In this document: piece by piece, positions 5,746 through 22,112 of the stretch | Numbering within the stretch: position 1 is the first letter of the stretch | Layout of the letters: every line of letters starts with the position of its first letter | Origin: Planctomycetales bacterium | Lineage (GTDB): Bacteria; 4484-113; JAFGCY01 | Direction of reading: 5' to 3' | Assembly: GCA_022646745.1 (NCBI GenBank) | Contig: CP060262.1 | Span: 1,350,001-1,382,000, forward strand | DNA: 32,000 nt | Program-made: the position numbers and the translations under genes | Notes under the pieces: generated by a model | The model's input: only the letters and a program-made list of their open reading frames with translations | The model's database searches: none | What the model was told of the DNA's origin: nothing

Positions 5746-8394
5746 TCACTCACCCCAGTGGTAACCGACTGCAGCGGCGTCCGCTTCCGTGATCAATCCG
5801 TCCAGGTCGGAATCGGCGAACACCGTCCAGTCCGGGTCATCCGATGACATTCCCACACGTGTGCGGATGAAGTCCAGGTCGGCCTGGTTCACCTGGCCGT
5901 CCGCGTTGGCATCGCCCGGCTGGCTGAAGATCCACAGCGGGATCTCGCGGATGGCTCCGGCTTCACTTCCATTGAAGGGTCTGATTCGCAGCAGCGCGAT
6001 GCGGTTGCCAAGTGCTGACAGGGGAATGCTGGCTGGGAAGTTGGAGCCCGTGTCGATGCTCTCAATATGGATGTCCTCGCTGCCGGAGTTGTCAAACGGT
6101 GCAAGGTCCAGTTCGTAATGCACCGCATCAGAACCTGTTGCTCCGGGCAGCGAAAGCTCCAGGTCGGGAACGCCAGCGGCTTCCCCGAGGAGCTGCCAGG
6201 CCTGCAGCCCGATGAATCCGCTGTTCGCGGACGCAGCCTGGCCACCCTCCCGCTGCAGTGCATTGTCAATCCAGGCACCGGGCAGGTGTGTATCCTCCCC
6301 GCTGCCAGCACCGTCTGATTCCAGCATGACCACCACATGCAGGGATTCACCGGCAAACGGTGAGAGATCCAGTTCGAACTGCTGCATCTCCTGCAGGCCA
6401 CTGAGTGCCGCCGGAAGCTCAGGCCCTTCAAATGTCAGCTGGCTGAAGCTCAGTCCGTTGTCAGTTGTGGCCAGGAAGCGCAGGAAGTCCCTGTCCTGCT
6501 CCAGGTTGCAGGCCGCCGATACCGACAGTGAAGGCTGCACCCTGCTGGAGAGGTCAATGCGGCGGCTTACGAGCAGTTCAGTACTCCATGCCCCGTAGCC
6601 AGACTGGCCGGACACCTGCGTGGCAGCCTGGAAGCCTGCCCCGCTCAGCAGCTGCCACTGGGTGCCGCCGCCGCTGCGAAGATCACCAATGTCCCAGCCC
6701 ATCGGTCCGAACTGCCGAAGCCGTGCCAGCAGGTCGTCGGAGCAGCCTGATGAGGGCAGTGAGCAGAGCAGGTTCAATCCAGTGTAGAAGTCCTCGCCAA
6801 AGCTGGCCAATCCCGTGCCACTGTTGTCAATCACCACAGGCAGGCTGCATTGCACAGTGCTCGTGGCATTGCCGGCGCGGATCACCAGCTCATGTGCACC
6901 ATCCGGCAGCATCGTCGTATCAATGGTGACACTTGCCGGTGCATCTTCGGCCCGGGCCAGCTCCATCCCATGCGCGCTGGCACTGAGCCAGTCCGCCTCG
7001 CCGATCACAAGCGGCTGCAGCTCCAGCATGCTGGACTGGGTCAGCTGGCCCAGCTGCGGTGCGCTGATTGACAATCCATTCAGCTTGTCAAACGCGGCCG
7101 CAATATCCAACCGGGGCACCGGATGCTCACCGAAGCCGGTGGTAGGCGCTCCGCTTGAGACCAGCAGCTCGCGCAGCTCAGCGGGAGTCAGGGTCGGGTC
7201 CTCGCTCAGCAGCAGTGCCGCCGCCCCGCTCACGAAGGCCGTGGCGTAACTGTTGCCGAAACCGGGCGAGACGTAGTCATCGTCGCTGTCCTTCCAGCAG
7301 CTCTTGAGGAACACCCCGGGGGCGGCGATGTCGATGTAGTCGCCGTAGCCGCACAGCTCCGGTACCCGCGCATCCAACGCATCTGTAGAGCCGACGGACA
7401 GCGCCGTGCCATAGGCGGCGGGATACCAGGGGAAGTCATTGTCCTCATTGCCAGCGCTGCAGACCAAAAGCACGCCCTTCTCCTCGAGGATGCGGCACAT
7501 CTCCTCCTCCAGCGGATTGGGGATCTTGCTGGCCCAGGAGTAGTTGATCACCTTCGCCCCGAGATCGGCGGCGAGCAGGGCGCCTTCGACGAGCTGTGCT
7601 CTGGAAGCTGAGAGATTGTATGAAACTCTAATTGGCAGTAGTTGACAATTACTAGCTACTCCAACTATTCCTATTGAGTTATTGGCCTGTGCTCCAATCA
7701 GACCAAAAATGTAAGTGCCATGACCATTGATGTCTTCAGGTAGACTGTCATTATCAATCAAATCAAATTTCACAGTTGGATAGTCGTTGATTAGTGTATT
7801 GTATTGACCCTGCAATTCTTGATGCTGGTAGTTAATGCCTGTATCGATTACAGCAATTGATGGTGGTTGATTTAATGGATTATTCCAAACTCCATCGAAG
7901 CCACAGTGAATTTGCCCCCACATTGGATGATAATCGGTCGCGGGGACACCTAGCGAATCCAGCCAATCAGGATCGTTGAAACCTGATGACATTGCAAAAC
8001 TATGCGTGTCAGGTAACAACTTAAATTTTTCACTTGAACAATAACTCTCACAAAAACTAGATAAGTTGTGTTTTTCTGAAAACGATATTCGAATAAATCC
8101 TAACAGATACTTGGTGAAGTCAATATCAATGGTACCCGCGTAATTGTCGACTGTCGTGCGTAACTCCTCCTCATGTAAAGCCTCAAAATTGCTACTACTC
8201 AGAATCACGCTACACTGTAGCTGAGTGTCTGCATAAACAGATGCATTGGCAATTGCTATCGTATTATCAACAGTGTGCGTTGTGGGCGAGCTACATGACA
8301 CATTCCAAGCCAAACTGAGCGGGCAAAACAAGGCTAGAAAAATTACTTTTTCAACATTCACATTTGCTACTCTAGCTGAACCACCTCCAACCAT
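5746..8394 (-). CDS. Subtilisin-family (S8) serine protease with large beta-rich middle region and C-terminal dockerin-like repeat
   Basis: 882 aa. Asp motif IAVIDTGINY, His motif NGHGTYIFGL, oxyanion SAGNEDN, Ser motif GNSYATAFVSGAAALLL. C-terminal GDANADGQVNQADLDFI ... DSDLDGLITEADAAAV. N-terminal hydrophobic signal KVIFLALFCPLSLAWNVSC. The exact start is uncertain: no clear SD precedes ATG 8394, and the ORF overlaps the fibre gene by 28 nt. Confidence 0.85.
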   Translation of the reverse strand: MVGGGSARVANVNVEKVIFLALFCPLSLAWNVSCSSPTTHTVDNTIAIANASVYADTQLQCSVILSSSNFEALHEEELRTTVDNYAGTIDIDFTKYLLGFIRISFSEKHNLSSFCESYCSSEKFKLLPDTHSFAMSSGFNDPDWLDSLGVPATDYHPMWGQIHCGFDGVWNNPLNQPPSIAVIDTGINYQHQELQGQYNTLINDYPTVKFDLIDNDSLPEDINGHGTYIFGLIGAQANNSIGIVGVASNCQLLPIRVSYNLSASRAQLVEGALLAADLGAKVINYSWASKIPNPLEEEMCRILEEKGVLLVCSAGNEDNDFPWYPAAYGTALSVGSTDALDARVPELCGYGDYIDIAAPGVFLKSCWKDSDDDYVSPGFGNSYATAFVSGAAALLLSEDPTLTPAELRELLVSSGAPTTGFGEHPVPRLDIAAAFDKLNGLSISAPQLGQLTQSSMLELQPLVIGEADWLSASAHGMELARAEDAPASVTIDTTMLPDGAHELVIRAGNATSTVQCSLPVVIDNSGTGLASFGEDFYTGLNLLCSLPSSGCSDDLLARLRQFGPMGWDIGDLRSGGGTQWQLLSGAGFQAATQVSGQSGYGAWSTELLVSRRIDLSSRVQPSLSVSAACNLEQDRDFLRFLATTDNGLSFSQLTFEGPELPAALSGLQEMQQFELDLSPFAGESLHVVVMLESDGAGSGEDTHLPGAWIDNALQREGGQAASANSGFIGLQAWQLLGEAAGVPDLELSLPGATGSDAVHYELDLAPFDNSGSEDIHIESIDTGSNFPASIPLSALGNRIALLRIRPFNGSEAGAIREIPLWIFSQPGDANADGQVNQADLDFIRTRVGMSSDDPDWTVFADSDLDGLITEADAAAVGYHWGE

Positions 8395-9434
8395 TCAAGG
8401 TGAACATTTGTATTGCCAACATTTGTTGCCGATGAAGTTCCCTGAATTGTTAGCGTGATGAATAGATTGTCAACACCAGATCCTAAGGATAGATCGCCAC
8501 TGCTGATAATTGTCCAGGTATCATCAGTGAGTGTGCCAATGAGATTGGTGCTTGATGCAACCAAACTTCCGCCCATGTCATTAATGGCGAGGTAAATCGA
8601 ATCAAGACGATCTGTGTCGACAACTTTCATGTGAGCTCTGAGAATTGCAGTGTTGCCAACCTGGCGTGCTGAAAGTGAGATGCATAACTGAAGTCCAGAA
8701 ACGATACTTCCGGTTATCTGCGTTGATGTCCAAGAAAGTATTAGAGCGTTATCGAGAATGATGCATGGTCCTAATGAAGTATCAAAAGTAGGATCAGAAT
8801 TGGTTTGAATTGATAAGCTAGCAGGTGAAGAACCTGTTGGGTATTCCTTTATGACCCACGGCAGGTTGATTTCGTTGTTGCCGCTTACGCTGTCACGGCT
8901 GCCGGCTGCCGGGAAGACCTGGCGGTGGACCACCTTCGTGCGCTCGTCAACGTAGTCCTTGTTGGTCAGGTCGTTGTCATTCGTCGGAGTGGCCGGGGTC
9001 TGGGGCGCGGTCGAGAATGTCTTCAATCCGGCGATGGCCTGGTTGCCGCTGGTGCGCACCACCGTGCTGTCCACCGCGAACTCCTCGCTCGCCAGACTGA
9101 GCCCGTCGCCAGCCGTGTAGTCCGGCGAATGCACGTCTATCTCGCTGGCCAGCTCATCCTGTGTGACCGTCGCCGCGCCGCTGCCGGTGATCGTGATCTC
9201 CCCGTCCAGCATCGGGTTGCCACTGCCGCCGGCGAGGCCTGTCACGAAACTCTCCGGCAGCGCTGGGTCATTAGTCACCCCGCCGCCACCCGCCGTCGAG
9301 CCTCCGCTGGACAGCGGCGCCGCCGCGCTGCCGCCCAGTGTGTCGCGCTGCTCCAGCGCCTGTTCAGTACGCCTGCGCGCATCAATCGCATCCCCGAGGC
9401 TGCCCGTCTGCTTCATCCTCCGCCTGATCGTCAT
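8367..9434 (-). CDS. Tail fibre / receptor-binding protein
   Basis: ORF 8367..9590 trimmed to ATG 9434. That start has GGAGGAG upstream and an ATGA overlap with the stop of the upstream gene. The protein has a Gly-rich N-terminal region and the DLTNKDYVD motif common in tail fibres. Its C-terminal ~190 aa lie in AT-rich DNA. It is the last gene of the tail module. Confidence 0.7.
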   Translation of the reverse strand: MTIRRRMKQTGSLGDAIDARRRTEQALEQRDTLGGSAAAPLSSGGSTAGGGGVTNDPALPESFVTGLAGGSGNPMLDGEITITGSGAATVTQDELASEIDVHSPDYTAGDGLSLASEEFAVDSTVVRTSGNQAIAGLKTFSTAPQTPATPTNDNDLTNKDYVDERTKVVHRQVFPAAGSRDSVSGNNEINLPWVIKEYPTGSSPASLSIQTNSDPTFDTSLGPCIILDNALILSWTSTQITGSIVSGLQLCISLSARQVGNTAILRAHMKVVDTDRLDSIYLAINDMGGSLVASSTNLIGTLTDDTWTIISSGDLSLGSGVDNLFITLTIQGTSSATNVGNTNVHLEWLEVVQLE

Positions 9435-11422
9435 TGCGTCTCCTCCGCCAGATAGTCCGTGCCGCCGATCACCGTCGCCCGCGGCGTATGCTCCACGCGC
9501 TCCACCAGCGCACTGACCGTGTTGCCAGCGCGATCCGTGCCTTCCACCGTCTGCCACAGCCGGATGCGCGGATCCGGCAGGCTGCGCCACTCGATTCCCG
9601 AGAGCTGCCTGAGGCTTTCCGCCAGCAGGTCGGTGGCCCGGTCCTGCGCCAGAAATTCATTGCCATCGAAGTCCGTGAACAAGGTGCGGTGCCTGCCGCC
9701 GAGCCTGGCCCAGAGCAGCGGGTGGTTGCGGATCAAGCGGTCGGTGAAGCCATCACCGTCATGGTCCGAGCTGTAGGTGTACTCCGTCGGCGGCATTGCC
9801 AGCGGGTCGATCTCGCGCACCACGCGGTATGTCTCCTCGCAGTACAGCTCCAGCTCCGCCAGCCCGATGCTCGGGTCGGACTGGTTGTCAAAACCATGCT
9901 TGTAGGCCCCGAGCTGCACCCGCAGGTAACGCAAGCGGGGCATCGTGATTTCATCCGGCCCGATTTCCAGCAGGCTGTGCGGCTCGAATCTGCCCTGCGC
10001 CAGCGGTGACAACAGGCGCCAGTCCAGGCCGTCAATGCTCGCCAGCACGCGGATCCCCGGCCAGAACAGGCCCTGGTGCCCGGCGGCACTGTTCAGGTTG
10101 CGGCTGCCCGGCATTACCGCCCGCAGGCGCTGCACGCGGCGCACTTCGCCGAGGTCGAACTGCATGAACCCATACCAGGAGTCGTAGAAGCCCGTGCCGC
10201 CATTCTCACTCGCCGCCAGGTGGTGCAGTGAAGCTCCGCGGCTGGTATCGCCATCGCACAGGAGCGGTGAGACTGCCGCGAAGGAACTGTCCGCGCCGAC
10301 ATTCAGCCCGTCCCAGCTGAACCAGTCTCCCTGAGTGGATATGTCACTGGCCACAGCCGTATCCGCCAGTACATTCACCGGCCGTTCCGACTTCCCGCTG
10401 ACAACCACCCGGCTGTACAGTGCGGAAATGTCACGTGGACGGCCACGCTCAGAGGCAGATAACAATAATGTGTCCGCCGTCTGCTGCTGCTCCACCAGGC
10501 GCAGCACGAACTTCGCCGCCTGCGGGTCATACCACAGCCTGAGGTTCGCCTGGTTGGCATCCCGCAGCCGCCTGAACAGTGCGCTGACGCTGCCCTGCCA
10601 GCTGATCGCACCGGCCGGAGACAGCCCGAGATCCGGTATGTCCAGCTCCGGGTCAGTCCGCCCCGGCCCGCCCTCGCTAGCCGGATACCTCAGTGCCGTG
10701 CGGTACACCTCCGCGAGGTCCAGCGTGCCCTCGATGTAACAGCGCACGCCGCTCAGCCAGTAGCTGTTGCCAGCCGTGTCCTCGAGGATGCTGAGCGTCC
10801 CGCCCGTCAGGTTGACCTGGTAATGCGAGGGCGAGACCTCAAGCGTCATCGCCGAGTCGTACCACAGGCGGATCTCGCCGGGCACGAAACTGCGCCGCCG
10901 CGTGCCGGGGTTGGCATCCTGGTTGAAGGCCGGGTCGCTGCCGCCGCTGTACGTGAAGCCGTAAATGCTGCCGAAGGCTCCACCGTTGACAAGCGACAAC
11001 TGCCTGACTGCGACCTCCGCCGTCTCATCCGGGCTCATTGCGATGTCGCATTCCGTCTCCGCCAGCAGACAGGACCAGTCGAGTGCCCTGAGCCGGATCA
11101 ATCCCTCGGACGGGTCCAGCTCGGTCACACGGCCGCGGAACAGCACTTCGCTTTCCGCGCCGATGGTCGCCGTCAGCTTCAGCTCAGACAACAGGCGCAG
11201 CGGGTTGCCCGCATCATCCGGGTCGGCCCAGTCCATTGCAGCATCAGGCACCTCGGCACGCAGGCGCGCGGCCCCGGAGGAATCATGCAGCAGGCGAAAA
11301 TCGGACAGAGGCAGCTCCACCCAAGCCATGTCGTCGGTCAGATCGGTGCGTGCCTCCAACTTCCAGCCCAGCAGCCGGCCGGGCCGCTTCAGTTCAGTTG
11401 TCGCCGCAGATGTGAATCCCAT
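9431..11422 (-). CDS. Tail hub / Tal-like baseplate protein with discoidin (F5/8 type C)-like carbohydrate-binding domain
   Basis: 663 aa, positioned after the Dit-like gene. Domain pattern MQFDLGEVRRVQRLRAV ... IRVLASIDGLDWRLL ... LRYLRVQL ... IGLAELELY. ATG 11422 has GGAG 6 nt upstream. Confidence 0.65.
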   Translation of the reverse strand: MGFTSAATTELKRPGRLLGWKLEARTDLTDDMAWVELPLSDFRLLHDSSGAARLRAEVPDAAMDWADPDDAGNPLRLLSELKLTATIGAESEVLFRGRVTELDPSEGLIRLRALDWSCLLAETECDIAMSPDETAEVAVRQLSLVNGGAFGSIYGFTYSGGSDPAFNQDANPGTRRRSFVPGEIRLWYDSAMTLEVSPSHYQVNLTGGTLSILEDTAGNSYWLSGVRCYIEGTLDLAEVYRTALRYPASEGGPGRTDPELDIPDLGLSPAGAISWQGSVSALFRRLRDANQANLRLWYDPQAAKFVLRLVEQQQTADTLLLSASERGRPRDISALYSRVVVSGKSERPVNVLADTAVASDISTQGDWFSWDGLNVGADSSFAAVSPLLCDGDTSRGASLHHLAASENGGTGFYDSWYGFMQFDLGEVRRVQRLRAVMPGSRNLNSAAGHQGLFWPGIRVLASIDGLDWRLLSPLAQGRFEPHSLLEIGPDEITMPRLRYLRVQLGAYKHGFDNQSDPSIGLAELELYCEETYRVVREIDPLAMPPTEYTYSSDHDGDGFTDRLIRNHPLLWARLGGRHRTLFTDFDGNEFLAQDRATDLLAESLRQLSGIEWRSLPDPRIRLWQTVEGTDRAGNTVSALVERVEHTPRATVIGGTDYLAEETQ

Positions 11423-11425
11423 TTG

Positions 11426-11941
11426 CTACTCCGTCCAGGGCCGTGCTGGGCTGGCCGCCGTATAACTACCCACGCTGTCGAAGTTGGCAAAGCTGCCGTC
11501 CTCCACAACATGGAACAGCGCGATATGCGGCAGGCCATTGTCAGCCTGCATCCCGAGATCGGCGGCGATTCCCTCCGGCAGGGCAGTCAGGCTGCCGCGC
11601 CAGGCCAGGTCGCGGCTGATTGAGATTCCGTCCGTAGCCTCGCCCGTGAACTCGCTGAAGATCACCAGTTCCGAGCGCTGCAGGTAGGCGCGCTCCAGCC
11701 AGTCCGCCACGCAAAGCCTGGTGGTAGCCGCCGCCGAGTTGGCAATGCTGAGCTGGAAGGGCCACAGTTCCAGCTCAAGCTGCACTACCCAGGCCTGCTC
11801 ACCGCTTTCCAGCCGGTGCACCAGGCCGTACAGGTCGCTTGCCTCCCTGAACGGTCGTGAGAACTTCGGCCTGACGGCGCTGCCGCTCAGCGTCAGGTGG
11901 TCGGACTGCGATTGCCAGATGCGGATGCGCGATGTGCTCAC
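11426..11941 (-). CDS. Distal tail protein (Dit)-like
   Basis: 171 aa. Assigned by position only, between the tape measure and the hub. GTGA overlap with the upstream stop. Confidence 0.4.
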   Translation of the reverse strand: MSTSRIRIWQSQSDHLTLSGSAVRPKFSRPFREASDLYGLVHRLESGEQAWVVQLELELWPFQLSIANSAAATTRLCVADWLERAYLQRSELVIFSEFTGEATDGISISRDLAWRGSLTALPEGIAADLGMQADNGLPHIALFHVVEDGSFANFDSVGSYTAASPARPWTE

Positions 11942-12576
11942 AGCTCAGCTCCCGGCCACAGGCCCTGCGCCGCATTCTCCTCCAGCAGGCGGCTGGCAAC
12001 ACGCGCGCTAATTACATCCTCGGCCCCGCTGCGGTAATCAAGTTCCACCGTGAAGGCCGGCCCGCGCGGCACGGCGCGTCCACCGAACAGGCGCGAAGCC
12101 GGGTTGAGTGCGAAGCCGAGATCCGTCACGGAGGGGAAGTTGACGACGCGTGCCTGCACCTCATTCGCTACCTGCACCGGCTGGCGCTTGCGCAGCAGCC
12201 GGTCCGCCAGCAGGCCGATGCCGGCCCCCAGCAGACCGCCGAGGATCCCGCCTCCTCCGCTGCCGCCACCAAGTGCGCGAGTCAGGCTGCCCGTGATGCC
12301 CTGGGTCAGCTTCGCAATCATGCTGCGCAGCGACTTCTGCAGCTCGGCGATGAATGGCGCCATGAGTGTGCGCGTCGACCCCGCCTGGCGCTGCCGCAGC
12401 TCAGCCCGCGATGTGCCGCCGGATGTCGCACTGGCAGCGCGCAGCGGCTCCAGCCCGCGCCGCAGCTCATCGCGCCAGCGTTCCAGCTGACCGCTCAGCT
12501 GCTCGGTGGATGCGCGCGCCTGGCCGAGGCTGCCCGCCAGCCGGTTCAGTGCCATCCGTGTCGTCTCAGTTGCCAT
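11938..12576 (-). CDS. Putative tape measure protein, unusually short (212 aa)
   Basis: Positioned after the chaperone pair. Helical N-terminus, then a Gly-rich hydrophobic segment GGGSGGGGILGGLLGAGIGLLADRLL. GGGGAGGA SD 5 nt upstream of ATG 12576. Confidence 0.5.
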   Translation of the reverse strand: MATETTRMALNRLAGSLGQARASTEQLSGQLERWRDELRRGLEPLRAASATSGGTSRAELRQRQAGSTRTLMAPFIAELQKSLRSMIAKLTQGITGSLTRALGGGSGGGGILGGLLGAGIGLLADRLLRKRQPVQVANEVQARVVNFPSVTDLGFALNPASRLFGGRAVPRGPAFTVELDYRSGAEDVISARVASRLLEENAAQGLWPGAEL

Positions 12577-12841
12577 GACTGTCCTCCCCCGCCGGATGCC
12601 TCCGGTGGAATGTGTCCCTCAGCGCATTGCTGCGCAGCTCGATCCCGCGCAGGGCCCGGCGCAGCTCCCGCTCATCCGTGAACGGGGCCGACAGCAGCCT
12701 GCGCCGCTCCGCCTCCAGCTCGTCCTGCGCTTCCCCATGCGCGATATGCAGCAGGCGGCACTGCACTTCCTCGCTGCCCATCCTGGCAATCTCCGCGCCA
12801 CCGTGTCCATGTGCGCGCAGTTTCAGCTCCAGCTCATGCAT
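12566..12841 (-). CDS. Tail assembly chaperone, downstream (-1 frame) part, lambda gpT-like by position
   Basis: 91-aa ORF in the -1 frame relative to 12844..13293. That frame is open across the junction in my hand translation. Confidence 0.4.
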   Translation of the reverse strand: MHELELKLRAHGHGGAEIARMGSEEVQCRLLHIAHGEAQDELEAERRRLLSAPFTDERELRRALRGIELRSNALRDTFHRRHPAGEDSHGN

Positions 12842-12843
12842 GC

Positions 12844-13293: not shown

Positions 13294-13309
13294 ATGACCT
13301 CCTTATTCA

Positions 13310-13390
13310 GGTTGCTGGGTGCAGGTTGCAGGGTGCAGAAGAACCTGAATGCTGTTCCCTCTATGCAACCCGCAACCATTAACCTGCAAC
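13310..13390. repeat. Inverted arrays of 7-nt tandem repeats forming a long imperfect hairpin
   Basis: Left arm GGTTGCT GGGTGCA GGTTGCA GGGTGCA (13310..13337). Right arm ATGCAAC CCGCAAC CATTAAC CTGCAAC (13363..13390). This is the only sizeable intergenic gap in the particle operon. Confidence 0.8.
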
Positions 13391-13395
13391 CTGTC

Positions 13396-14657: not shown

Positions 14658-14670
14658 CTCCGTCACCTCC

Positions 14671-15114: not shown

Positions 15115-15124
15115 CGTTCACCCC

Positions 15125-16039
15125 CTAGGCCGAACCGTCGCTGCCGACCGCCATCTGCCACAGGCCGTAGCCCGCGCCGCAGCGGCTGCGCACGCCGAAC
15201 TTGTAGGCATCGGCGCTGAACACGTACTCGTCATCGGGGCGCGTCACCGCGCTGAACTCCGGCCTCACGCGCCACTGGAACAGCAGCGGGCGCACCGGGT
15301 ACTGCGTTGCCAGCACGAACCAGTGGTTGGCGGGCACCCAGGGGCTGACCTGCAGGTTGAGCATGCCGCTCAGCCCATTGCCATCCGGCTTCTCGAGGTC
15401 CGTGCCGCCGCTGAGCACGATGCCCGTCGAGTTGAGCAGTTCACGTGCGGTGAAGTAGTTGTCGGGGCCGACGAGCAGGGTGTCCGGCAGCAGGCCAAAG
15501 GGCTTGCCGTGGTCATCCCTGAACGCCATCATGGTCTCAATCGCCAGCTTCAGGCTGGTGCTGCCCAGCTTGTCGGCCATCTTGTTGACCTGTGTGCCGC
15601 TTTCCCCCTGCTTATGGTCATCCGCGAAGAAGGCCTTGCCGTCATAGCCCGTGTCGGTGAAGCCGTTGGCCAGCAGGCCGACCACCAGCTCGTCCGGGTG
15701 GCTGGCCGCACGCAGCGCCAGCTCCTCGATGCGCGGCTTGAGCTGCGCCAGTCGGTCATCCTCGAAGGTCTCGCGGTCCACCTCGATCGAGGCCTCGAAG
15801 CGACGGTTGGCGATTTCGTAGTCGTTGGTGCGCAGCGCACCGGGCACGCGTTCGTCCGTCCATTCGCGCATCGCCGGCACCGCTCCGAGCCAGTTCCAGC
15901 TCTCCTTCGAATTGCTGCTGTCAACCACCGTTGACAGCTTCGCGTAGAGCGGGTCAGCGCCCTGGAAGCCGCGCTCGAACAGCGCGCGGAATCCCGTGAA
16001 TGAGGCTTCAAGGAAGTCTCGTGTTACCAGTCTTGCCAT
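15125..16039 (-). CDS. Major capsid protein, Mu gpT-like
   Basis: 304 aa. LYAKLSTVVDSSNSKESWNWLGAVPAMREWTDERV ... YEIANRRFEASIEVDRETFEDDRL matches recalled gpT-family motifs. Strong SD (TAGGAGGGG) before ATG 16039. Confidence 0.8.
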   Translation of the reverse strand: MARLVTRDFLEASFTGFRALFERGFQGADPLYAKLSTVVDSSNSKESWNWLGAVPAMREWTDERVPGALRTNDYEIANRRFEASIEVDRETFEDDRLAQLKPRIEELALRAASHPDELVVGLLANGFTDTGYDGKAFFADDHKQGESGTQVNKMADKLGSTSLKLAIETMMAFRDDHGKPFGLLPDTLLVGPDNYFTARELLNSTGIVLSGGTDLEKPDGNGLSGMLNLQVSPWVPANHWFVLATQYPVRPLLFQWRVRPEFSAVTRPDDEYVFSADAYKFGVRSRCGAGYGLWQMAVGSDGSA

Positions 16040-16051
16040 CTGTGTCCCCTC

Positions 16052-16483
16052 CTAGTGCAGGTCGATGCGCAGCCAGACGTCGGTGCCGTCGAAACCCTCG
16101 AGCCGGCCCGCCTGGATGTCATTGGTGACCGTGGACACCACGGCCACGGTCTGGTCGTCAACGATGTACAGCGGCTGGCCGAGGTCGGCCTGCGTGATGC
16201 TGCCGCCCTTGGCGAAGCTGAACACGCCGCGCGCCATCACGCGCACGTTCACATCACCGTCGCTGCCGGAGCTGTTGTCAGCGTCCTCGATCGCCACGCC
16301 GATGAAGGTCTGGCCAGCCGTGTCACTGCCGGGCACGGCATGTCCCGTGCTGTCGGCGCAGACGATACCGCCCTTGAAGATCTGTGTGGATCCCTTCACC
16401 TTGTGCGCCGTCACGGTTCCTTCGCGGTGGCGCGTGTACCTGCTCTCAGTCAGTGCCGTCATCCGTCCCTCCCGTCCGCTCAT
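16052..16483 (-). CDS. DUF2190-like beta-rich head protein (decoration/cement-like)
   Basis: 143-aa ORF. The more likely start is the second ATG at 16462 (GGGAGGG 4-5 nt upstream). Positioned between the protease/scaffold and capsid genes. Confidence 0.45.
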   Translation of the reverse strand: MSGREGRMTALTESRYTRHREGTVTAHKVKGSTQIFKGGIVCADSTGHAVPGSDTAGQTFIGVAIEDADNSSGSDGDVNVRVMARGVFSFAKGGSITQADLGQPLYIVDDQTVAVVSTVTNDIQAGRLEGFDGTDVWLRIDLH

Positions 16484-16895
16484 CGCGGATGTTCACATAT
16501 TCAATGTCCGACAGCCCGAGGCTGCCGGCGATCTCACGCTCGAACTCGCTGAGCTGCGTAAACAGCTCATGCCCCGCCGCCAGTTCCGTGTCCAGCTGCT
16601 GCACCGGTAGGCTGTGCAGCAGGCCGGTCAGGCAGTCCAGCGCGCTTTGCTCACTGCCATCCGCCAGCAATACCGCATCGGTGTTGCCAGCCGAGAGGCA
16701 GAGCAGCAGCCCGCGCAGCCCGCTGGCCTCCATTCCCGGTGTCAGGCGGCCAGCAATGCGCAGTTCCGACAGCAGTCCGTCCACCGCGACTTCATTGTCA
16801 CGGCGGCGGTAGTCCGCCAGCTCGCTTGCCAGCCGGCGGTTCTCTTCCCCGAGGCGCAGGATCTCACCCGCGCCAGCTGTGTTGCCAGAATCCAT
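16446..16895 (-). CDS. Possible nested scaffold protein (Mu gpZ-like) from an internal in-frame start
   Basis: In-frame ATG at 16895-16893, preceded by GGAGG (16905..16901) at 5-nt spacing. It would yield a 149-aa helical, acidic C-terminal product. Confidence 0.3.
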   Translation of the reverse strand: MDSGNTAGAGEILRLGEENRRLASELADYRRRDNEVAVDGLLSELRIAGRLTPGMEASGLRGLLLCLSAGNTDAVLLADGSEQSALDCLTGLLHSLPVQQLDTELAAGHELFTQLSEFEREIAGSLGLSDIEYVNIRDERTGGTDDGTD

Positions 16896-17363
16896 CTCTT
16901 CCTCCATCAGAACACTGAGCAGCCCGGCCCCGCTGTCTGCGGCCAGCACCGGTTCGGGCAGGGCCGGCAGGCCACGCACCGCCGGAGCGCGTGCCCCGAG
17001 CAGTGCCAGGCCGCGCAGGTAGGGCCCGCGCCCGTCCAGCTCCCGCCAGACCTCCGCCGAGCGTGCCGGCCAGCGGCCCTCCGTGATCTGCGTTGCCAGC
17101 CAGTGCGGCAGGCCCTCGATGTCGGCGCGCAGGTGCATGCAGTCGAAGCGCAGGGCGGAGATGCTGCCGAGTGCCGGCCCACTGTCGCTGTGGTCCAGGT
17201 TGATCGTTGCCAGGTGGTACTGCGGGTCGTAGTTCGCCGCGATCTCAGCCAGCTGCTGTTCGCTGAATTCCACCGGCCGGCCCTGCATGTCGCGGTAGCT
17301 GCCCGGCCGCAGGATCGCCACGTCCCGCAGCTTCAGCGGGCTTCCCGTTGTTGCCATCGTCAC
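16446..17363 (-). CDS. Prohead protease / scaffold fusion, Mu gpI-like
   Basis: 305 aa. N-terminal VAILRPGSYRDMQGRPVEFSEQQLAEIAANYDP ... INLDHSDSG fits the recalled Mu-like protein I family. The C-terminal half is helical and acidic (scaffold-like). GTGA overlap with the portal stop. Confidence 0.7.
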   Translation of the reverse strand: MTMATTGSPLKLRDVAILRPGSYRDMQGRPVEFSEQQLAEIAANYDPQYHLATINLDHSDSGPALGSISALRFDCMHLRADIEGLPHWLATQITEGRWPARSAEVWRELDGRGPYLRGLALLGARAPAVRGLPALPEPVLAADSGAGLLSVLMEEEMDSGNTAGAGEILRLGEENRRLASELADYRRRDNEVAVDGLLSELRIAGRLTPGMEASGLRGLLLCLSAGNTDAVLLADGSEQSALDCLTGLLHSLPVQQLDTELAAGHELFTQLSEFEREIAGSLGLSDIEYVNIRDERTGGTDDGTD

Positions 17364-18655
17364 TGTCCACCTCCCTGTGGTTTGCCGCCGTGCGGCAGGC
17401 TGCGTCCGTAGCGGGTGCAGAGCTGCTGCGGGTCCTGCTCGATGCCCTGCGCGGCGAGGAAGGCATCGATTTCCAGCTCGAGCCGGAGGTCGCGTTCCAG
17501 TGGCGCATCCAGCTCGAGGCGCGGCAGGCGGCCAAGCGCCTGCGGCATGTTCAGTTCCACGATCCAGCGCAGCAGTGTGCTCGTGATGATGCCGGCCAGC
17601 GCATTGGCATCGCTTCTGATGATGTCGGCGCGCACGTTCTCATGCACCTGGCCGAGTGCGTAGCTGCCCCGTCCGCCTTCGGACTGCGTGGTGAGAGTCT
17701 GCCCCAGCAGCGCCTTGCTCATCTCGCGGTTGCAGAACTCCAGCAGCTCGAGGTAGGTCTCCACGCTGCCCGAGCGTGCGCCCTCCAGCAGGCTGAGTTC
17801 CACGCCCTCGGGCAGCACGATGCCGGTTTCCTGCTGCAGGCTGCCGACGATCTTCCTCAGCTGCCGGCGCTCCTCAATGCCGGTGGACGGCGGATGCGTT
17901 GCCACCGTGGTCGGGCTGCCGAACTTCTCGCAGTACACCACCCAGAAGCGCAGCACCTGGCGCTTGAACCAGCTCAGCCACCACACGCATCTCAGCGCCG
18001 GCAGGCCGTAGGGGTTCTCGTGGCGGCCATAGGGCGCGAACACGATGAAGCGCCTGTCCGGCAGCGGCACGCCGCGCACCGGCTGCTCGCGGGTCAGGAG
18101 GCGCAATGAACTGTCGGCCGCGAACACGAAGCGGCGTGGGTGGCGCGACTTCACGCTGCAGGGCAGCAGGTACTCGCCGGAGAGCGAGCCATTATCAATC
18201 CGCTGCCGCCGCCAGAGCACCTCGCTGACACTTATGCCATAGGGCACCGCGTCCAGCAGCTCACTGAGCAAGTTGTCAGCCCCGCCCGGCCCGTCCAGGC
18301 AGCCGCTGCCCTCGAACAGCTGTGCGCATAGCTCGGCGGCCTGCCGGGCCAGCACGCTGTCGTCCGCTGGTACGACGCGCCGCTGCCAGCCGAGCACCGC
18401 GGCCCGCCGCTGGCCGACGAGCGAGGAGAGATGGGCATCCTTGTCCAGTGCCTCCTCGAACAGTCCCCAGGGCCAGTCATAGGCCGCCGAGGGCTGCTTC
18501 GCCGCCAGCAGCGGGTCACGGTTGGGGCGCACCCCGAGCCAGCCTGCCAGCGGTTCGTAGAGGTCGCTGGCAACGCCTGCAATCTCCCGACCGCCCGGCA
18601 CGGCAACGGATTGTTCACGGCGCGGCTGCGCCTTCTTCCTCCCTGAAAAGAGCAT
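17360..18655 (-). CDS. Portal protein, Mu gp29/DUF935-like
   Basis: 431 aa between the terminase and protease genes. TAGGAGGGAAGG precedes ATG 18655. The region LGQTLTTQSEGGRGSYALGQVHENVRADIIRSDA resembles DUF935 portals (from recall). Confidence 0.75.
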   Translation of the reverse strand: MLFSGRKKAQPRREQSVAVPGGREIAGVASDLYEPLAGWLGVRPNRDPLLAAKQPSAAYDWPWGLFEEALDKDAHLSSLVGQRRAAVLGWQRRVVPADDSVLARQAAELCAQLFEGSGCLDGPGGADNLLSELLDAVPYGISVSEVLWRRQRIDNGSLSGEYLLPCSVKSRHPRRFVFAADSSLRLLTREQPVRGVPLPDRRFIVFAPYGRHENPYGLPALRCVWWLSWFKRQVLRFWVVYCEKFGSPTTVATHPPSTGIEERRQLRKIVGSLQQETGIVLPEGVELSLLEGARSGSVETYLELLEFCNREMSKALLGQTLTTQSEGGRGSYALGQVHENVRADIIRSDANALAGIITSTLLRWIVELNMPQALGRLPRLELDAPLERDLRLELEIDAFLAAQGIEQDPQQLCTRYGRSLPHGGKPQGGGQ

Positions 18656-18664
18656 CCTTCCCTC

Positions 18665-20242
18665 CTAGAATCCGCTCGTGAAATGGCCGCTGCCATCATC
18701 GTCATCCGCGGGCCCCGTGCCCGCCAGAACCGCCATGCCGCGCCGCCTCCCGGCAGCCGTGGCCAGCTTGCCAGCCATGCCTCCCGCCTGCTGCGGGGCG
18801 ACCTCCATCGCCCGGGCGAGGGCATCAAGCTGGTCGTCATGCGCACCCGCCGGGTAGTGCAGCGCTTCCTCGAGGAAGGCCGCCAGCCAGTGCGCCGAAT
18901 CGGGGATTGCTAAGCGCCCACGCTGCACCTGCACCGCCATCGCATCAAGCCGCAGCTCCTTTCTGGAGTGCGCCGGCAGCGGTACGGCGGGCAGGCCACG
19001 GTCCAGCGCGGCCTGGGAGAGCACCGCCTGGTAGGCCGTGTTCTCGATGCCGATGCGCTGCGGGCGCCACAACTCATTGAGCCGCTCCAGCAGCGCAATC
19101 TGCTCGGCGAAGCGCAGGCGGGCCCGCTGCATGTCCAAGAGGAACAGGCGCTGTCCCGCGTCGTCAGTGCCGAGCACCGCCGCGCAGAACCAGTCGTGCC
19201 TGTCCCCCTGGCCGATGGCGGGGTCCACCCCGATGCTGATCCGCAGGCGTTCGTTGCCAAGGAAGATCCCGTCCGGCCTGATGGCAACACCGCCTGCGGC
19301 ATAGCGCGCGAAGTCCCCCTCCCTGAAGACCTGCTGCGCCAGTGAGACCGGACGGTTCATGTATTCCTGGCTGAAGGCACTGTGCCCGATCTCCTGGCGG
19401 CGCTGCTCCAGACGCTCGACGGTCCAGCGCTGCGGCCACAGGGGCCGGCCCTCGTCGTCCAGTGCTGCCAGCCGGACGCTCTGCCAGTGCGGCAGGCTGC
19501 CCTCGGCGATGCGCTGCATCAGGCGCGCCAGCGCGGAGTCGTGGTGCAGCAGCGTGCCGAGCCAGACCAGGCTGCCGGAGGTGATGTCCAGCGCATTGAC
19601 AAGCGCGTGGTCCAGCCAGTGGCTGAGCCGGTCGCGCTGTTCCGCACTGCGCACCATGTCGTCATCCTCCGGGTCGTCAAGCACCACGAGGTCCAGCCGG
19701 CTGCCGTTGGAGAGTTGGCCGCGCACGCGACCGAGCGCGCCGATGGTTGCCAGGCGCTGCCCGCCGGCGAGGATCAGCTGGCTGTCATTCCAGCTGACCT
19801 TCGTGCCACGCGCATCCAGCGCCGGGGCGATCCTTTCGCCGAACAGGAAGTGCAGCAGGCGGTTGCGCTCCAGCTCCGTGGTGATCATGCGCAGCCGGGC
19901 CTGGGCCTCCTCGCGGTTGGCGCAGACGATCAGGATGTTGCGCTTGTCCCCGCAGCAGAGCTGGTGCAGCACCAGCCCGAGCGTGCCGATGGTGGTCTTA
20001 GCATGCTCACGGGGCAGGGCACCGGCCAGCCTGTGCCCGGGCTGCATCGCCTCAAGCAGTTGCGCTGCCAGCTCGTGCTGGAAGCGGCCAAAAGGCAGGC
20101 CCAGCAGATCCGGCAGGCAGACAGCGCAGAAGCGCAGCAGGTCGGAGCGCATCGACCGCCGGGCCTGCTCACGCAGAATGGCGATCCGCGCATCAGCCGG
20201 CAACGGCCGGAAGGGGATGGGGACAGGAACGGAACTGGTCAT
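18665..20242 (-). CDS. Terminase large subunit
   Basis: About 525 aa. Walker-A-like ALPREHAKTT and Walker-B-like RLDLVVLDDPEDDD, with a C-terminal nuclease-like region. ATG 20242 overlaps the TGA of the upstream gene by 1 nt. The ORF track begins one codon earlier, at TTG 20245. Confidence 0.85.
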   Translation of the reverse strand: MTSSVPVPIPFRPLPADARIAILREQARRSMRSDLLRFCAVCLPDLLGLPFGRFQHELAAQLLEAMQPGHRLAGALPREHAKTTIGTLGLVLHQLCCGDKRNILIVCANREEAQARLRMITTELERNRLLHFLFGERIAPALDARGTKVSWNDSQLILAGGQRLATIGALGRVRGQLSNGSRLDLVVLDDPEDDDMVRSAEQRDRLSHWLDHALVNALDITSGSLVWLGTLLHHDSALARLMQRIAEGSLPHWQSVRLAALDDEGRPLWPQRWTVERLEQRRQEIGHSAFSQEYMNRPVSLAQQVFREGDFARYAAGGVAIRPDGIFLGNERLRISIGVDPAIGQGDRHDWFCAAVLGTDDAGQRLFLLDMQRARLRFAEQIALLERLNELWRPQRIGIENTAYQAVLSQAALDRGLPAVPLPAHSRKELRLDAMAVQVQRGRLAIPDSAHWLAAFLEEALHYPAGAHDDQLDALARAMEVAPQQAGGMAGKLATAAGRRRGMAVLAGTGPADDDDGSGHFTSGF

Positions 20243-20856
20243 CAACTGAAGTCCCTCCCGGCCGCTGCCTTATCCGCAGCATCATGCTGCGGCGTATCTG
20301 TTTGAGTGTTGGCAATATCAATCGGGTCTGCATCGCTGGCAGCATGCTGCCCCTCAACCAGCAGTTCACGGCTGGATTCAAGGCGCTCCAGCAGCAGCTC
20401 CAGGGACTTCAGTGATTCCTCTCCAGCCGGGGCCTCCAGCGCTGGTCCGCCTTCCAGCGGCACCTTCTCCACCAGCTTGCCGATGGTGTTCAGTGATGCA
20501 TTGTCTGTGGAGTCCAGCAGGGCGCGCATCAGCTTCTGGCGGTAGATCGCATGCAGCATCGCCGGCGTGACCACGCCGCTGTCCCGCAGCTGCAGGCGCA
20601 GGCGGCGGATTTCCGGCGAACGGGCGTAGCTATCCAGCTCATCCGCCGTGACACCGACGGCCTGGTGCCAGCCGCCACTCGGACGCTGGCCGGTGGCCAG
20701 CAGGATGCGCACCAGCACATCCGCGCCGTCGCCGCTGAACAGCTTCGCTTCATCAAGCGCGGCGCTGGCGGGCGGAGCAGCCTGTTGCTCCAGTTCCATA
20801 TAGGGCTGCGCCGTGCCATTCCCGTTGAGTCCGGCGGCCTGCTTCAGTGCATCCAT
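20242..20856 (-). CDS. Putative terminase small subunit
   Basis: 204 aa. Assigned by position only, immediately 5' of TerL. GGAGG lies 8 nt upstream of ATG 20856. Confidence 0.4.
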   Translation of the reverse strand: MDALKQAAGLNGNGTAQPYMELEQQAAPPASAALDEAKLFSGDGADVLVRILLATGQRPSGGWHQAVGVTADELDSYARSPEIRRLRLQLRDSGVVTPAMLHAIYRQKLMRALLDSTDNASLNTIGKLVEKVPLEGGPALEAPAGEESLKSLELLLERLESSRELLVEGQHAASDADPIDIANTQTDTPQHDAADKAAAGRDFS

Positions 20857-20858
20857 GC

Positions 20859-21110
20859 TCAGGACCTCCGGCGCGGCTGGTACTTCATCCGGCCGCGGCC
20901 ATCCTCGCGGGTCTGCTCGAACACCTCATGCGGCTGCAGCTCCATCCCGAGCTCGCTGCCGAGCGCTTCGCAGATACGGCCGGCCATCGTCGGCGAGGGT
21001 GGGTAGTAGCCATTCTCCAGGTGGGCGATGCTCGCGCGGGCCACCTTCGCGCGGTTTGCCAGCTGCTGCTGGGTCATTTCGGCGCAGAGGCGCCACTGCC
21101 TCAGTTTCAT
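20859..21110 (-). CDS. Cro/Ner-like XRE-family HTH regulator, first gene of the particle operon
   Basis: MKLRQWRLCAEMTQQQLANRAKVARASIAHLENG is an XRE-type HTH. ATG 21110 is preferred over ORF-track start 21140 because GGGGAGAGG lies directly upstream. Confidence 0.75.
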   Translation of the reverse strand: MKLRQWRLCAEMTQQQLANRAKVARASIAHLENGYYPPSPTMAGRICEALGSELGMELQPHEVFEQTREDGRGRMKYQPRRRS

Positions 21111-21169
21111 GTCCTCTCCCCGTTCACAAGAACTATACATATATATTGCTTATTGCCTTTCCACTTGAC

Positions 21170-21189
21170 GCATGAATATTTATTCATGC
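21170..21189. promoter_or_regulatory. Perfect 20-bp palindrome, candidate operator
   Basis: GCATGAATA-TT-TATTCATGC (9-bp arms). It lies in the AT-rich divergent region, between the predicted Cro-side promoter and the cro-like start codon. Confidence 0.5.
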
Positions 21190-21203
21190 CTCTGATGTTA
21201 GGG

Positions 21204-21231
21204 ATTTTACCAGATTAGTCGATTTAGTCAA
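21204..21231 (-). promoter_or_regulatory. Sigma70-type promoter for the cro-like/particle operon
   Basis: Minus strand reads TTGACT (21231..21226), a 16-nt spacer, then TAAAAT (21209..21204). The tandem GAT(T)TAGTC direct repeat (21213..21229) overlaps the -35 and spacer. Confidence 0.55.
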
Positions 21232-21257
21232 GAAATGAGGCAAGAATTAACATTTTG

Positions 21258-21286
21258 TTGCCTTTGTAAGACAACTGTGGTAAACT
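21258..21286 (+). promoter_or_regulatory. Sigma70-type promoter for the repressor gene, predicting a leaderless mRNA
   Basis: TTGCCT (21258..21263), a 17-nt spacer, then TAAACT (21281..21286). The ATG at 21293 lies 7 nt after the -10 element. No SD is present upstream of the ATG. Confidence 0.5.
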
Positions 21287-21292
21287 CCTGTC

Positions 21293-22033
21293 ATGCCTGA
21301 ACGGACCAGCATCCGGCAGCGAGCCGGGCTGTACTTACGATTCCTTAGGTTGAAGGCGGGCCTTGAGCAGTCCGCTGTCGCAGCACGGCTGGAGGTCAGC
21401 CAGCCCACCATCTCCCGGCTTGAAAAGGGGCTCGGCTCCCCGGAGCCCGGGCATATCGCGGCCTGGCTGGCGATCTGCCTCGAGCAGGGGGATGTGATGG
21501 GCCTGGACCAGGCCTCCGCCGTGCTGCGCCTGCTGCAGGACATCCTCGTGATGGATGAGGAGGGGCCGGCACTGGCCGCCGAACTGGACCGGCTCCTGAG
21601 CGCGATGGTCACCGAGCGGCCGGAAATGGCGGCGGGCGTGCCCTACTTCGCGGATGTGGCGGCCGGGCCCGGTGAGAGCCAGCAGCCTCGGGTGGAGCCG
21701 CGCAGCTACATCGAGGTGCCGGCCGGGGTGGTGGCACGCGACCCGCAGGCCTTTGCGCTGCGCATCGTCGGCGACAGCATGCAGCCGCTGCTCCTGGAGG
21801 GCGACATCGTTGTCATCAGCCCGGCGGCGCAGCTGATCGAGGGCTGCATCGTGGCGGCCTACGTTGAACCGGATGGCGACGTGGTGAAGCGCTACCATCC
21901 CTGCCGCTCGGCTGACTGCGAGGCACGGCTGCGCAGCGCCAACCCGGCCTATGCGGACATCAAGCTGGGCGGCGAGAACGGACGCTCCGGGCGGATCTGG
22001 GGCCGGGTGCTGTTCTGCCAGCGGGAGCTGTAG
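21293..22033 (+). CDS. CI/LexA-type repressor: N-terminal XRE HTH plus C-terminal S24 self-cleaving peptidase domain
   Basis: 246 aa. HTH is LRLKAGLEQSAVAARLEVSQPTISRLEKG. Ala-Gly cleavage-type site is DVAAGPGE (21662..21667). Catalytic-type Ser is in GDSMQP (21776..21778), with Lys in VVKRY. Confidence 0.85.
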   Translation: MPERTSIRQRAGLYLRFLRLKAGLEQSAVAARLEVSQPTISRLEKGLGSPEPGHIAAWLAICLEQGDVMGLDQASAVLRLLQDILVMDEEGPALAAELDRLLSAMVTERPEMAAGVPYFADVAAGPGESQQPRVEPRSYIEVPAGVVARDPQAFALRIVGDSMQPLLLEGDIVVISPAAQLIEGCIVAAYVEPDGDVVKRYHPCRSADCEARLRSANPAYADIKLGGENGRSGRIWGRVLFCQREL

Positions 22034-22053
22034 GAGGCCAGGCTGTCAGCCGC

Positions 22054-22110: not shown

Positions 22111-22112
22111 AC

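Follow-up and report, generated by a model that had tools for sequence, protein, structure and literature searches.

We analysed a 32-kb stretch of DNA (hereafter the window; positions 1,350,001 to 1,382,000 of contig CP060262.1, from an assembly labelled Planctomycetales bacterium) in which a compact cluster of phage-like genes spans positions 8367-22033, some 13.7 kb including a divergent repressor gene at 21293-22033 on the plus strand. Coordinates throughout are positions within the window, and minus-strand genes run from high to low numbers. Listing of open reading frames (ORFs), combined with refinement of start codons, places 16 genes, all on the minus strand, in an unbroken chain from 21110 down to 8367. 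Successive genes overlap or are separated by no more than 12 nt, except at a 100-nt gap that contains a hairpin, and a GGAGG-like Shine-Dalgarno motif precedes most of the starts; the GC content of the window is ~62-70%. As set out below, the locus is a candidate for a domesticated phage-particle cluster of independent origin, descended from a Mu-type siphophage and retaining a CI/Cro switch. A first-pass annotation of this DNA had described a Mu-type head and short-tail operon of 16 tightly joined genes on one strand, in which a Cro-like gene leads directly into the terminase module. ORF, start and profile analyses agree on both counts, with 2 nt separating the cro stop (TGA) from the ATG of the small-terminase candidate. 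Two details are corrected here: the fibre start is placed at 9434 rather than 9590, and the tube gene is cut by an in-frame TAG.

Families were assigned by Pfam and PHROG profile searches, with NCBIfam, Protein Data Bank (PDB) and AlphaFold/Foldseek searches for the proteins left over. The matches obtained are Mu-lineage head families, helix-turn-helix (HTH) and S24 regulators, and a BppL_N fibre; the small-terminase candidate, a 138-aa neck protein, both chaperone ORFs, the tape measure protein and the distal tail candidate were assigned by position only (for the tape measure protein, with composition as well). In order from the repressor to the fibre, the cluster comprises:

21293-22033, plus strand: CI-type repressor with an XRE-type HTH and a LexA-like S24 autopeptidase (Pfam Peptidase_S24, E = 9e-18, and HTH_31/HTH_3; phrog_4, E = 5e-23).
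21141-21292, no strand: divergent switch region, the putative operator-promoter between CI and cro.
20859-21110, minus strand: Cro/Ner-like HTH protein, 83 aa from a Shine-Dalgarno-preceded ATG at 21110 (Pfam HTH_3, E = 4e-11).
20242-20856, minus strand: small-terminase (TerS) candidate, 204 aa, by position; fast-evolving orphan family.
18665-20242, minus strand: large terminase, TerL (phrog_38, E = 9e-85; Terminase_6C, E = 3e-10).
17360-18655, minus strand: Mu-type portal, DUF935 (Portal_Mu, E = 3e-91), with no fused Mu-F domain.
16446-17357, minus strand: head maturation protease/scaffold (phrog_976, E = 2e-27).
16052-16462, minus strand: head decoration/cement protein (Phage_cement_2, E = 2e-6; phrog_1731, E = 3e-37).
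15125-16039, minus strand: major capsid protein of the Mu gpT family (Mu-like_gpT, E = 3e-72; PDB 8rkc, phage JBD30, E = 9e-46).
14671-15114, minus strand: head-tail adaptor of the Mu gp36 family (Phage_Mu_Gp36, E = 2e-13; phrog_195).
14241-14657, minus strand: 138-aa neck protein, a stopper by position.
13396-14244, minus strand: major tail (tube) protein gene, 282 codons, with a sub-threshold match to NCBIfam tail_tube_6XGR (E = 6e-6).
12844-13293 (alternative start 13260), minus strand: tail assembly chaperone candidate, by position; kept in all loci, no family match.
12566-12841, minus strand: second ORF in chaperone position, in the -1 frame relative to the preceding gene, its frame open for 32 codons upstream.
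11938-12576, minus strand: tape measure protein (TMP) candidate, 212 aa, helical, with a Gly-rich hydrophobic segment.
11426-11941, minus strand: distal tail (Dit) candidate, by position; kept in all loci, no PDB or family match.
9431-11422, minus strand: baseplate hub (Tal/gp27-like) with an inserted CBM32/discoidin-type module, from an AlphaFold2 (AF2) model and Foldseek.
8367-9434, minus strand: tail fibre/receptor-binding protein, 355 aa (BppL_N, shoulder motif, E = 3e-9).

The profile searches establish a Mu-type head module of DUF935 portal, gpT capsid and gp36 adaptor, together with terminase families, in agreement with the initial description. Among solved structures, the capsid of Pseudomonas phage JBD30 (PDB 8rkc) comes closest, and the nearest deposited phages are Mu-like, 31-38 kb in length, with capsids 33-40% identical. 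Head homology predicts a head of ~60 nm and a capacity of ~37 kb, the T number not being readable from sequence; the 31-38 kb of phages with homologous heads is in keeping with the earlier remark that the locus, at 13.7 kb, lies well below the capacity of a Mu-type head. The TerS candidate gave no Pfam, PHROG, NCBIfam or PDB profile match, and an exhaustive HMMER search recovered only 17 relatives among 1.84 billion representatives. Its AF2 model is all-helical, with short N-terminal helices followed by long ones, at a low predicted local distance difference test score (pLDDT 52), and a fold search with this low-confidence model returned nothing meaningful. The 138-aa neck protein had no family match (Pfam, PHROG, NCBIfam) and no PDB profile match.

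When the hub, tube, Dit and stopper candidates were compared with all PDB chains by sequence and by profile (the structures of RcGTA, the gene transfer agent of Rhodobacter capsulatus, are assumed to be among these chains), no phage or gene transfer agent (GTA) protein was matched. The 663-aa hub was modelled at pLDDT 85, and Foldseek matched it to T5 pb3, Mu gp44, the 43-kDa protein of MuSo2, the hubs of contractile injection systems and VgrG, and CBM32 domains; the matches to hub proteins and to CBM32 folds indicate a baseplate hub with an inserted sugar-binding module. Its homologues number only 41, all of them inside this element family. Scaling the 212-aa TMP from JBD30, in which a TMP of 1158 aa accompanies a 180-nm tail (PMC11445458), predicts a tail of ~30 nm. 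A -1 frameshift joining the two chaperone ORFs was considered and set aside: the frames overlap, yet no canonical slippery heptamer was found at the overlap.

Inspection of the tube gene revealed an in-frame amber codon at codon 82, changed from CAG to TAG (13999-14001). All five close relatives compared carry CAG at this codon and encode the tube as a single intact ORF of 282-283 aa; the nonsense mutation in this copy is recent. Three independent metagenome contigs (L001-L003), drawn from different samples, carry the TAG as well. An amber codon in this gene probably blocks tail assembly unless it is suppressed, and this genome's copy of the particle is probably tail-defective.

The regulatory end of the cluster is better preserved than its coding DNA. 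Translation of CI contains the Ala-Gly cleavage site VAAG/PG along with GDSM and VVKRY, the Ser and Lys motifs of self-cleaving repressors, and the protein is 67-100% identical among close relatives. The spacer between CI and cro is AT-rich and 152 bp long, and carries a cro-ward promoter on the minus strand, with TTGACT at 21231-21226, a 16-nt spacer and TAAAAT at 21209-21204. Just downstream of the -10 hexamer lies a perfect 18-bp palindrome, CATGAATAAATATTCATG, at 21171-21188, which is a putative operator. The promoter hexamers and the palindrome are invariant in five loci, and the spacer as a whole is 82% conserved, compared with ~75% for coding DNA, which argues for a working operator-promoter. 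With the Peptidase_S24 and HTH_3 matches, these motifs agree with the earlier proposal that a LexA-like repressor has been kept and that a CI/Cro switch is wired to the particle operon.

Pfam and PHROG searches found no integrase, transposase (DDE/rve or MuA), MuB-type ATPase, replication or lysis family in the cluster, or in its flanks within the window, apart from a transposase associated with repetitive extragenic palindromes (REPs), termed a RAYT; the same searches found no endolysin in cluster or window. The first reading, which had remarked on the absence of integrase, transposase, replication and lysis genes, is upheld. A repeat search of the window revealed no attachment-site (att)-like or terminal direct repeats flanking 8367-22033, and transfer RNA and Rfam family scans of all 32 kb found nothing.

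Portal searches, context look-ups and collection scans yielded 16 independent related loci with the CI side visible, which come from activated-sludge and other environmental metagenome assemblies, including metagenome-assembled genomes (MAGs) labelled 'UBP7' or 'Planctomycetales bacterium'. Their portals are 47-98% identical to that of the window. Every one of the 16 encodes CI, a divergent Cro, a small protein, TerL, portal, protease, decoration protein, capsid and adaptor, and the order of tail genes is kept as far as each contig reaches, to the fibre where that is covered. The same compact layout recurs in all 16, and five have the window's neighbours, which answers the question of synteny raised at the outset. 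The family forms a discrete clade: portal identity is at least 47% within it and then drops to 43% (a decayed remnant), 41% (a complete Mu-like prophage) and 34% or less elsewhere. The 41% portal belongs to an ordinary Mu-like prophage, L030, with DUF3164, a GH108 lysin (Glyco_hydro_108) and gp27. The remnant (L029, 7498-16086) has no CI or Cro, its capsid gene is cut by an inserted serine recombinase and staphylococcal nuclease (SNase) gene, and genes for caspase-tetratricopeptide repeat (TPR) proteins lie upstream.

Beyond CI, the neighbouring genes are cellular across loci (Clp, MutS, ornithine carbamoyltransferase, thioredoxins, major facilitator superfamily transporters, PAS sensors, PPK2, CinA and TPR proteins), and no integrase, transposase, rve or replication family was found in the flanks of the 16 loci. 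A PQQ-propeller gene beside CI is common to the window, L017, L011, L024 and L012 (portals 73-98% identical); an S8 protease follows the fibre in four of these five loci by comparison, and the gene calls of L011 show one too. Beta-lactamase-fold, DUF6249 and 327-aa genes are further neighbours common to the window and L011. A second genomic context unites L016 with L025, and a third L015 with L022. An AhpC/thioredoxin gene, found beside CI in L013, L015 and L022, was considered as a marker of the ancestral site and rejected: the L013 copy is ~40% identical to the other two and opposite in orientation to that of L015. Nucleotide homology between loci stops at the CI stop codon, and inter-locus alignment revealed no conserved Mu-type terminal ends beyond it; in L024, the next gene lies only 78 bp past CI, leaving no room for such ends.

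Nei-Gojobori estimates of dN/dS and dS were used to gauge selection and divergence. Between the window and L017, dN/dS is 0.015-0.19 for all genes except the fibre (0.40), with the capsid at 0.015; between L011 and L024 it is 0.04-0.36 (hub and fibre not included), and for host flanking genes of the window-L017 pair it is 0.18-0.43. The structural genes are thus under strong purifying selection, a point on which the initial annotation had proposed to test domestication. Between the window and L011, dS is 0.40-0.82 for element genes, 0.42-0.50 for two flank genes and 1.10 for a third, indicating comparable divergence of element and flanks. The window-L017 pair shows a graded pattern, with dS of 0.04-0.09 in the host flanks (22944-28398 compared), 0.08-0.19 in the switch and head, 0.15-0.37 from the stopper through the tail, and 0.66 in the fibre. 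An element dS above that of the flanks indicates recombination or import in this pair, and the gradient suggests that recombinational import is concentrated at the fibre end.

The fibre end coincides with a further feature, which extends beyond the cluster:

7600-8855, minus strand: low-GC hypervariable cassette, spanning the tip of the fibre and, in the neighbouring secreted S8 subtilase, the N-terminal ~260 aa.

Comparison of the window with L017 shows that the N-terminal 190 aa of the fibre are conserved (95% identical) and that the C-terminal ~165 aa are hypervariable (34% identical); among four full-length fibres, the tip is 34-45% identical regardless of how closely the backbones are related. 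This hypervariability argues that the particles meet cell surfaces. Nucleotide homology to all four relatives ends at window position 8855 and restarts inside the S8 catalytic domain, at 7617 for L017 and 7590 for L012, the two loci from which the far boundary was read (L011 and L024 end before it). The cassette has a GC content of 0.37-0.44 in the window, and the relatives carry an equally low but non-alignable block; its counterparts are L017 19674-20899 and L012 19905-21179, and the window, L017 and L012 blocks span 0.32-0.49. The cassette is sharply delimited, with boundaries common to several genomes, and could reflect long-term balancing selection or a matched pair of fibre and surface protein. 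The S8 protease (5746-8394) is secreted, ends in a dockerin, and is co-directional with and adjacent to the fibre gene in the window's subclade. Its membership in the operon was examined and rejected, as it is not found after the fibre in distant relatives, and we treat it as a host neighbour that shares the recombination cassette.

Considering these observations together, we propose that the cluster is a domesticated, SOS-inducible particle operon derived from a transposable phage like JBD30 or D3112, a reading to which we give an even chance of being correct. Part of this proposal is that the locus passes down with the chromosome within an uncultured lineage, to which the MAGs labelled UBP7 belong. 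The first-pass suggestion of a domesticated, GTA-like particle system thereby stands as a candidate, supported by recurrence, synteny, selection and the missing att repeats. In this scheme, the ancestor would have lost everything between Ner/Cro and the terminase, namely the transposase genes A and B, early genes, late activators and lysis. CI, identified by gene content and motifs, would sit on the invariant palindrome beside the -10 of a strong promoter. DNA damage would induce its self-cleavage and release a single transcript of ~13 kb from cro to fibre, the single transcript being suggested by the tight junctions and the lack of internal terminators. TerS and TerL, portal, protease-scaffold, gpT capsid and decoration protein, head genes whose identities are established above, would build a Mu-type head. 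The adaptor, stopper, tube, 212-aa TMP, Dit, CBM32-bearing hub and fibre, assigned mostly by position or structure, would form a non-contractile tail of ~30 nm. Because the element has no replication, excision or transposition of its own, only the resident chromosome would be open to packaging, and the particles would carry host DNA, either at random, as in GTAs, or in headfuls begun near the locus. Release would rely on functions outside the operon. The particle-maker is possibly a new kind of GTA, and a GTA-like function is plausible.

The closest relationship is to JBD30 and D3112 (Casadabanvirus). JBD30, a transposable siphophage, has a lambda-like cI, a transposase and a 596-Å capsid, and its neck consists of adaptor and stopper only (PMC11445458). 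As in these phages, a lambda-like cI at the left end precedes a Ner/Cro-type gene; the head genes include a DUF935 portal, protease/scaffold, decoration protein, gpT capsid and gp36-type adaptor; the neck has a single protein besides the adaptor; and the tail genes run in the order tube, chaperones, TMP, Dit and hub. The cluster differs in the absence of the transposase A/B genes, the early region, the late activators and the lysis genes, in its length (13.7 kb against ~37 kb), in the size of its TMP (212 aa against 1158 aa), in tail proteins that have no detectable sequence similarity to those of JBD30, and in lacking a Mu gp27-type TerS and a Mu-F domain. Phage Mu itself has the same portal, capsid and adaptor families, a hub (gp44) of similar fold, and a repressor and ner at the left end; unlike Mu, the cluster has no MuA or MuB, ends, contractile tail, invertible G segment or C/Mor cascade. 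Mu-like phages also carry lysis genes upstream of their packaging genes, as does prophage L030 with its Glyco_hydro_108 lysin, whereas the cluster carries none.

In organisation, the cluster also resembles RcGTA: both occupy ~14-15 kb and run from TerS, TerL, portal, protease, capsid and adaptor to tube, chaperones, a short TMP (212 aa here, about 216 aa in RcGTA), Dit, hub and fibre. The traits of the GTA class found here are an absence of replication, excision and integration genes, purifying selection and synteny in the chromosome; as in RcGTA, replication and integration genes are missing, lysis lies outside the cluster (PMC11841831), and chromosomal inheritance goes with purifying selection. 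Unlike RcGTA, which belongs to the Alphaproteobacteria, the cluster has a head of the Mu gpT/DUF935 lineage, resides in another host lineage, and has a large predicted capacity rather than one of 4.5 kb. Judged by family names, the Pfam and PHROG matches include no domain family characteristic of the RcGTA cluster. RcGTA is controlled through host regulators such as CtrA and GafA; here, control would lie with a linked CI/Cro switch bearing an S24 autopeptidase.

A further parallel is PBSX of Bacillus, in which an Xre-type repressor governs a structure-only late region that is SOS-inducible, has no replication or integration genes, packages host DNA into particles and is chromosomally fixed. 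The cluster resembles it as a repressor-controlled, structure-only region that is fixed in the chromosome and would be expected to yield particles with host DNA. PBSX differs in its contractile tail, its own lysis cassette, a late sigma factor, about twice the length, and an Xre repressor without S24, and is unrelated in sequence. To our knowledge, GTAs represent a handful of independent domestications, none described as a derivative of a Mu-type transposable phage, and literature searches found no earlier description of this element. The claim that the combination matches no described GTA type holds to that extent, but PBSX provides a precedent for a structure-only prophage under repressor control. 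Unlike tailocins, the cluster has a full head and terminase module under selection; unlike capsid-forming phage-inducible chromosomal islands (PICIs) and satellites, it has its own tail module and neither integrase nor primase.

Several observations weigh against domestication as a GTA-like particle. The locus is known from its genes alone, and all functional steps are inferred. The TerS candidate may keep an HTH-like segment, and GTA TerS proteins lack a DNA-binding domain (PMC11841831). Unlike known GTAs, whose particles hold 4-14 kb, too little for all the genes needed to make them (PMC11841831), the predicted head would be roomy enough for the whole 13.7-kb cluster. The window's tube nonsense mutation is fixed in at least three assemblies; genes are split in L015, L021 and L022, the hub is fragmented and the fibre truncated in L011, and L029 is wrecked. 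In roughly a third of related loci, one gene or more is disrupted; assembly errors may account for some of the splits. The L013 element (82% portal identity) is nearer to the window's than are those of L011, L012 and L024, yet has another CI-side flank, a mismatch that does not fit a simple vertical history. Finally, element dS between the window and L017 (0.08-0.37) exceeds that of adjacent host genes (0.04-0.09). In L011 itself (17518-20142; AC1.30 MAG), four ORFs stand in place of a single hub gene and the fibre ends early, at 215 aa, with the near-identical element of L024 intact; these disruptions are either real decay or long-read indel errors.

Some of these points would follow from in situ packaging. 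Under this alternative, the element would be neither a classical GTA nor a dead prophage but a packaging device that does not replicate or excise; a Mu-type headful would start at a pac site in or near terS, so that ~37-kb heads take in the 13.7-kb operon with adjoining chromosome, and the locus would spread among related cells by lateral-transduction-like transfer and homologous recombination. In situ packaging would explain an element dS that exceeds that of the flanks and rises towards the fibre, the sharply bounded, ancient alleles of fibre tip and S8 protein that are shuffled across backbones, and a fixed address without an integrase; a matched ligand-receptor pair for kin recognition could even be formed by the fibre tip together with the co-inherited, variable N-terminus of the S8/dockerin protein next to it. 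We regard packaging and spread of this kind, taken jointly, as unlikely.

An antagonistic role like that of PBSX is a serious alternative given the hypervariable fibre tip. Here the particle would be a killer of the PBSX or tailocin type, adsorbing to and harming competing strains, with DNA packaging incidental. Control of a structure-only cluster by a repressor is the logic of PBSX and pyocins, and a fibre tip that is 34-45% identical whatever the backbone, together with a sugar-binding module in the hub, is the pattern expected of specificity in inter-strain antagonism; dS is also higher in tail than in head genes. A pure killing device could, however, lose its terminase, portal and head, and these are held under dN/dS as low as that of the tail (capsid 0.015). 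Moreover, no lysis cassette is linked to the cluster, unlike in PBSX, and neither profile searches of the TMP and hub nor a structure search of the hub found a toxin or lytic domain. On balance, a killer particle seems to us improbable.

Alternatively, the locus could be a still-mobile, dependent element that makes its own virion, obtains replication, transposition and lysis from a Mu-like helper or the host, and spreads horizontally. Mu-type heads are established to package integrated DNA in situ in Mu-like phages, and horizontal spread would accommodate the three or more genomic contexts across the family, the flank of L013 at odds with its element similarity, and the excess of element over flank dS in the window-L017 pair. 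Two family members have been binned as viral in IMG/VR, but both contigs are short fragments of the same operon and so are uninformative about free viral genomes. Nor are there conserved non-coding ends past the CI stop codon, or terminal or direct repeats, and five loci, at portal identities to the window of only 73-98%, have neighbouring genes in common. The gene set of known satellites is the reverse: they retain integration and replication genes and use virions that are not their own. With no replication, integration or end sequences, and with an address in the chromosome that is common to several loci, an autonomous or satellite element is unlikely, and we consider a dependent element doubtful.

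The gene disruptions noted above could instead mark an inert, defective prophage, each locus being decaying debris whose conservation reflects recent ancestry. The amber stop in the window's tube gene, the damaged hub and fibre of L011, the split genes of L015, L021 and L022, the wrecked L029, and colonisation by REP and RAYT sequences are all what such decay would produce. Against this stand the full 16-gene order, which 16 loci of differing habitats preserve at portal identities as low as 47%, dN/dS of 0.015-0.36 in two close pairs, at or below that of host flanking genes, and a regulatory region more conserved than coding DNA; neutral debris would not hold 13 kb of intact frames over dS above 0.5. 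A structure-only gene set whose order is kept to 47% portal identity, under selection as strong as that on host genes and with a still more conserved switch, makes inert debris quite unlikely.

That the locus is a complete, minimal temperate phage of ~14 kb is very improbable, since its lysogeny switch, full virion module and a possible holin after the fibre in distant relatives are set against the absence, throughout the 16 loci, of genes for replication, integration or excision, the lack of an endolysin and of att repeats, a syntenic chromosomal position, and the 31-38 kb of all phages with homologous heads. The possible holin is a conserved protein of 102-116 aa that lies right after the fibre in distant relatives (L031:13257-13607, L032:13469-13807, L033:14216-14524). 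A single hydrophobic segment lies in its N-terminal part and is accompanied by a charged tail; PHROG gives a weak holin match (E = 8e-4), and the protein may be a holin; a tblastn search found no counterpart in the window or its subclade.

If the locus is a domesticated particle operon, it would represent a further independent origin of particle makers, beyond those of cultured Proteobacteria, spirochaetes and archaea. A lysogeny switch wired straight to a virion operon would be an unusually clean case, suited to reconstitution in a heterologous host, and a particle big enough for its own genes would test whether small heads are what keeps GTAs 'selfless'. The fibre-tip cassette, with its fixed recombination boundaries, would offer a compact natural system in which to study balancing selection on receptor specificity.

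Examination of the surroundings confirmed the flanking genes reported initially, with the S8 subtilase (5746-8394) and an NYN gene (5061-5708) on the fibre side, and the RAYT (21951-22844), a PQQ-propeller surface protein, a beta-lactamase-fold gene, DUF6249 and a sigma factor on the CI side. A hairpin occupies the one sizeable gap in the chain:

13306-13391, no strand: REP-like inverted-repeat hairpin of GGTTGCA heptamers, between the tube gene and the chaperone candidate.

Its fold energy (dG -42.2 kcal/mol, z -3.3) and a second copy, with GGTTGCA/GGGTGCA heptamers, at 31204-31265, outside the cluster and upstream of the sigma-factor gene, substantiate the earlier view that a host-type heptamer hairpin has entered the operon. 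The hairpin may act as an attenuator; the content and length of the intergenic site after the tube gene differ in each related locus. The REP-like hairpin, the RAYT insertions and a GC content close to that of the host point to long residence of the element.

The RAYT, an IS200-like Y1 transposase, is flanked by a pair of 42-nt inverted repeats (22112-22153 and 22849-22890), of which a solo copy lies at 30731-30780. GGGATGC heptamer arrays at 22041-22111 and 30871-30958 adjoin the RAYT site and the solo repeat, respectively, and the RAYT with its adjoining 381-aa gene is found only in the window and L017. The NYN-domain gene has a GC content of 0.46-0.51, below its surroundings, and a full-length match to phrog_7929 (E = 2e-18), a phage family whose function is not known. 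Directly after the element, restriction-modification or defence genes are present in L032 (15949-21021) and L033 (14789-20694), and in L016 and L033 an N6/N4 DNA methyltransferase is found inside the operon, between the tube and chaperone genes (L033:6425-7444). Dockerin-like repeat segments of 80-120 nt, 72-82% identical, are common to three large flanking ORFs of the window, at 23-892, 2449-4443 (segment 3697-3942) and 24289-27255 (segment 24722-24939), which suggests that the element is surrounded by genes for a family of secreted surface proteins bearing dockerins.

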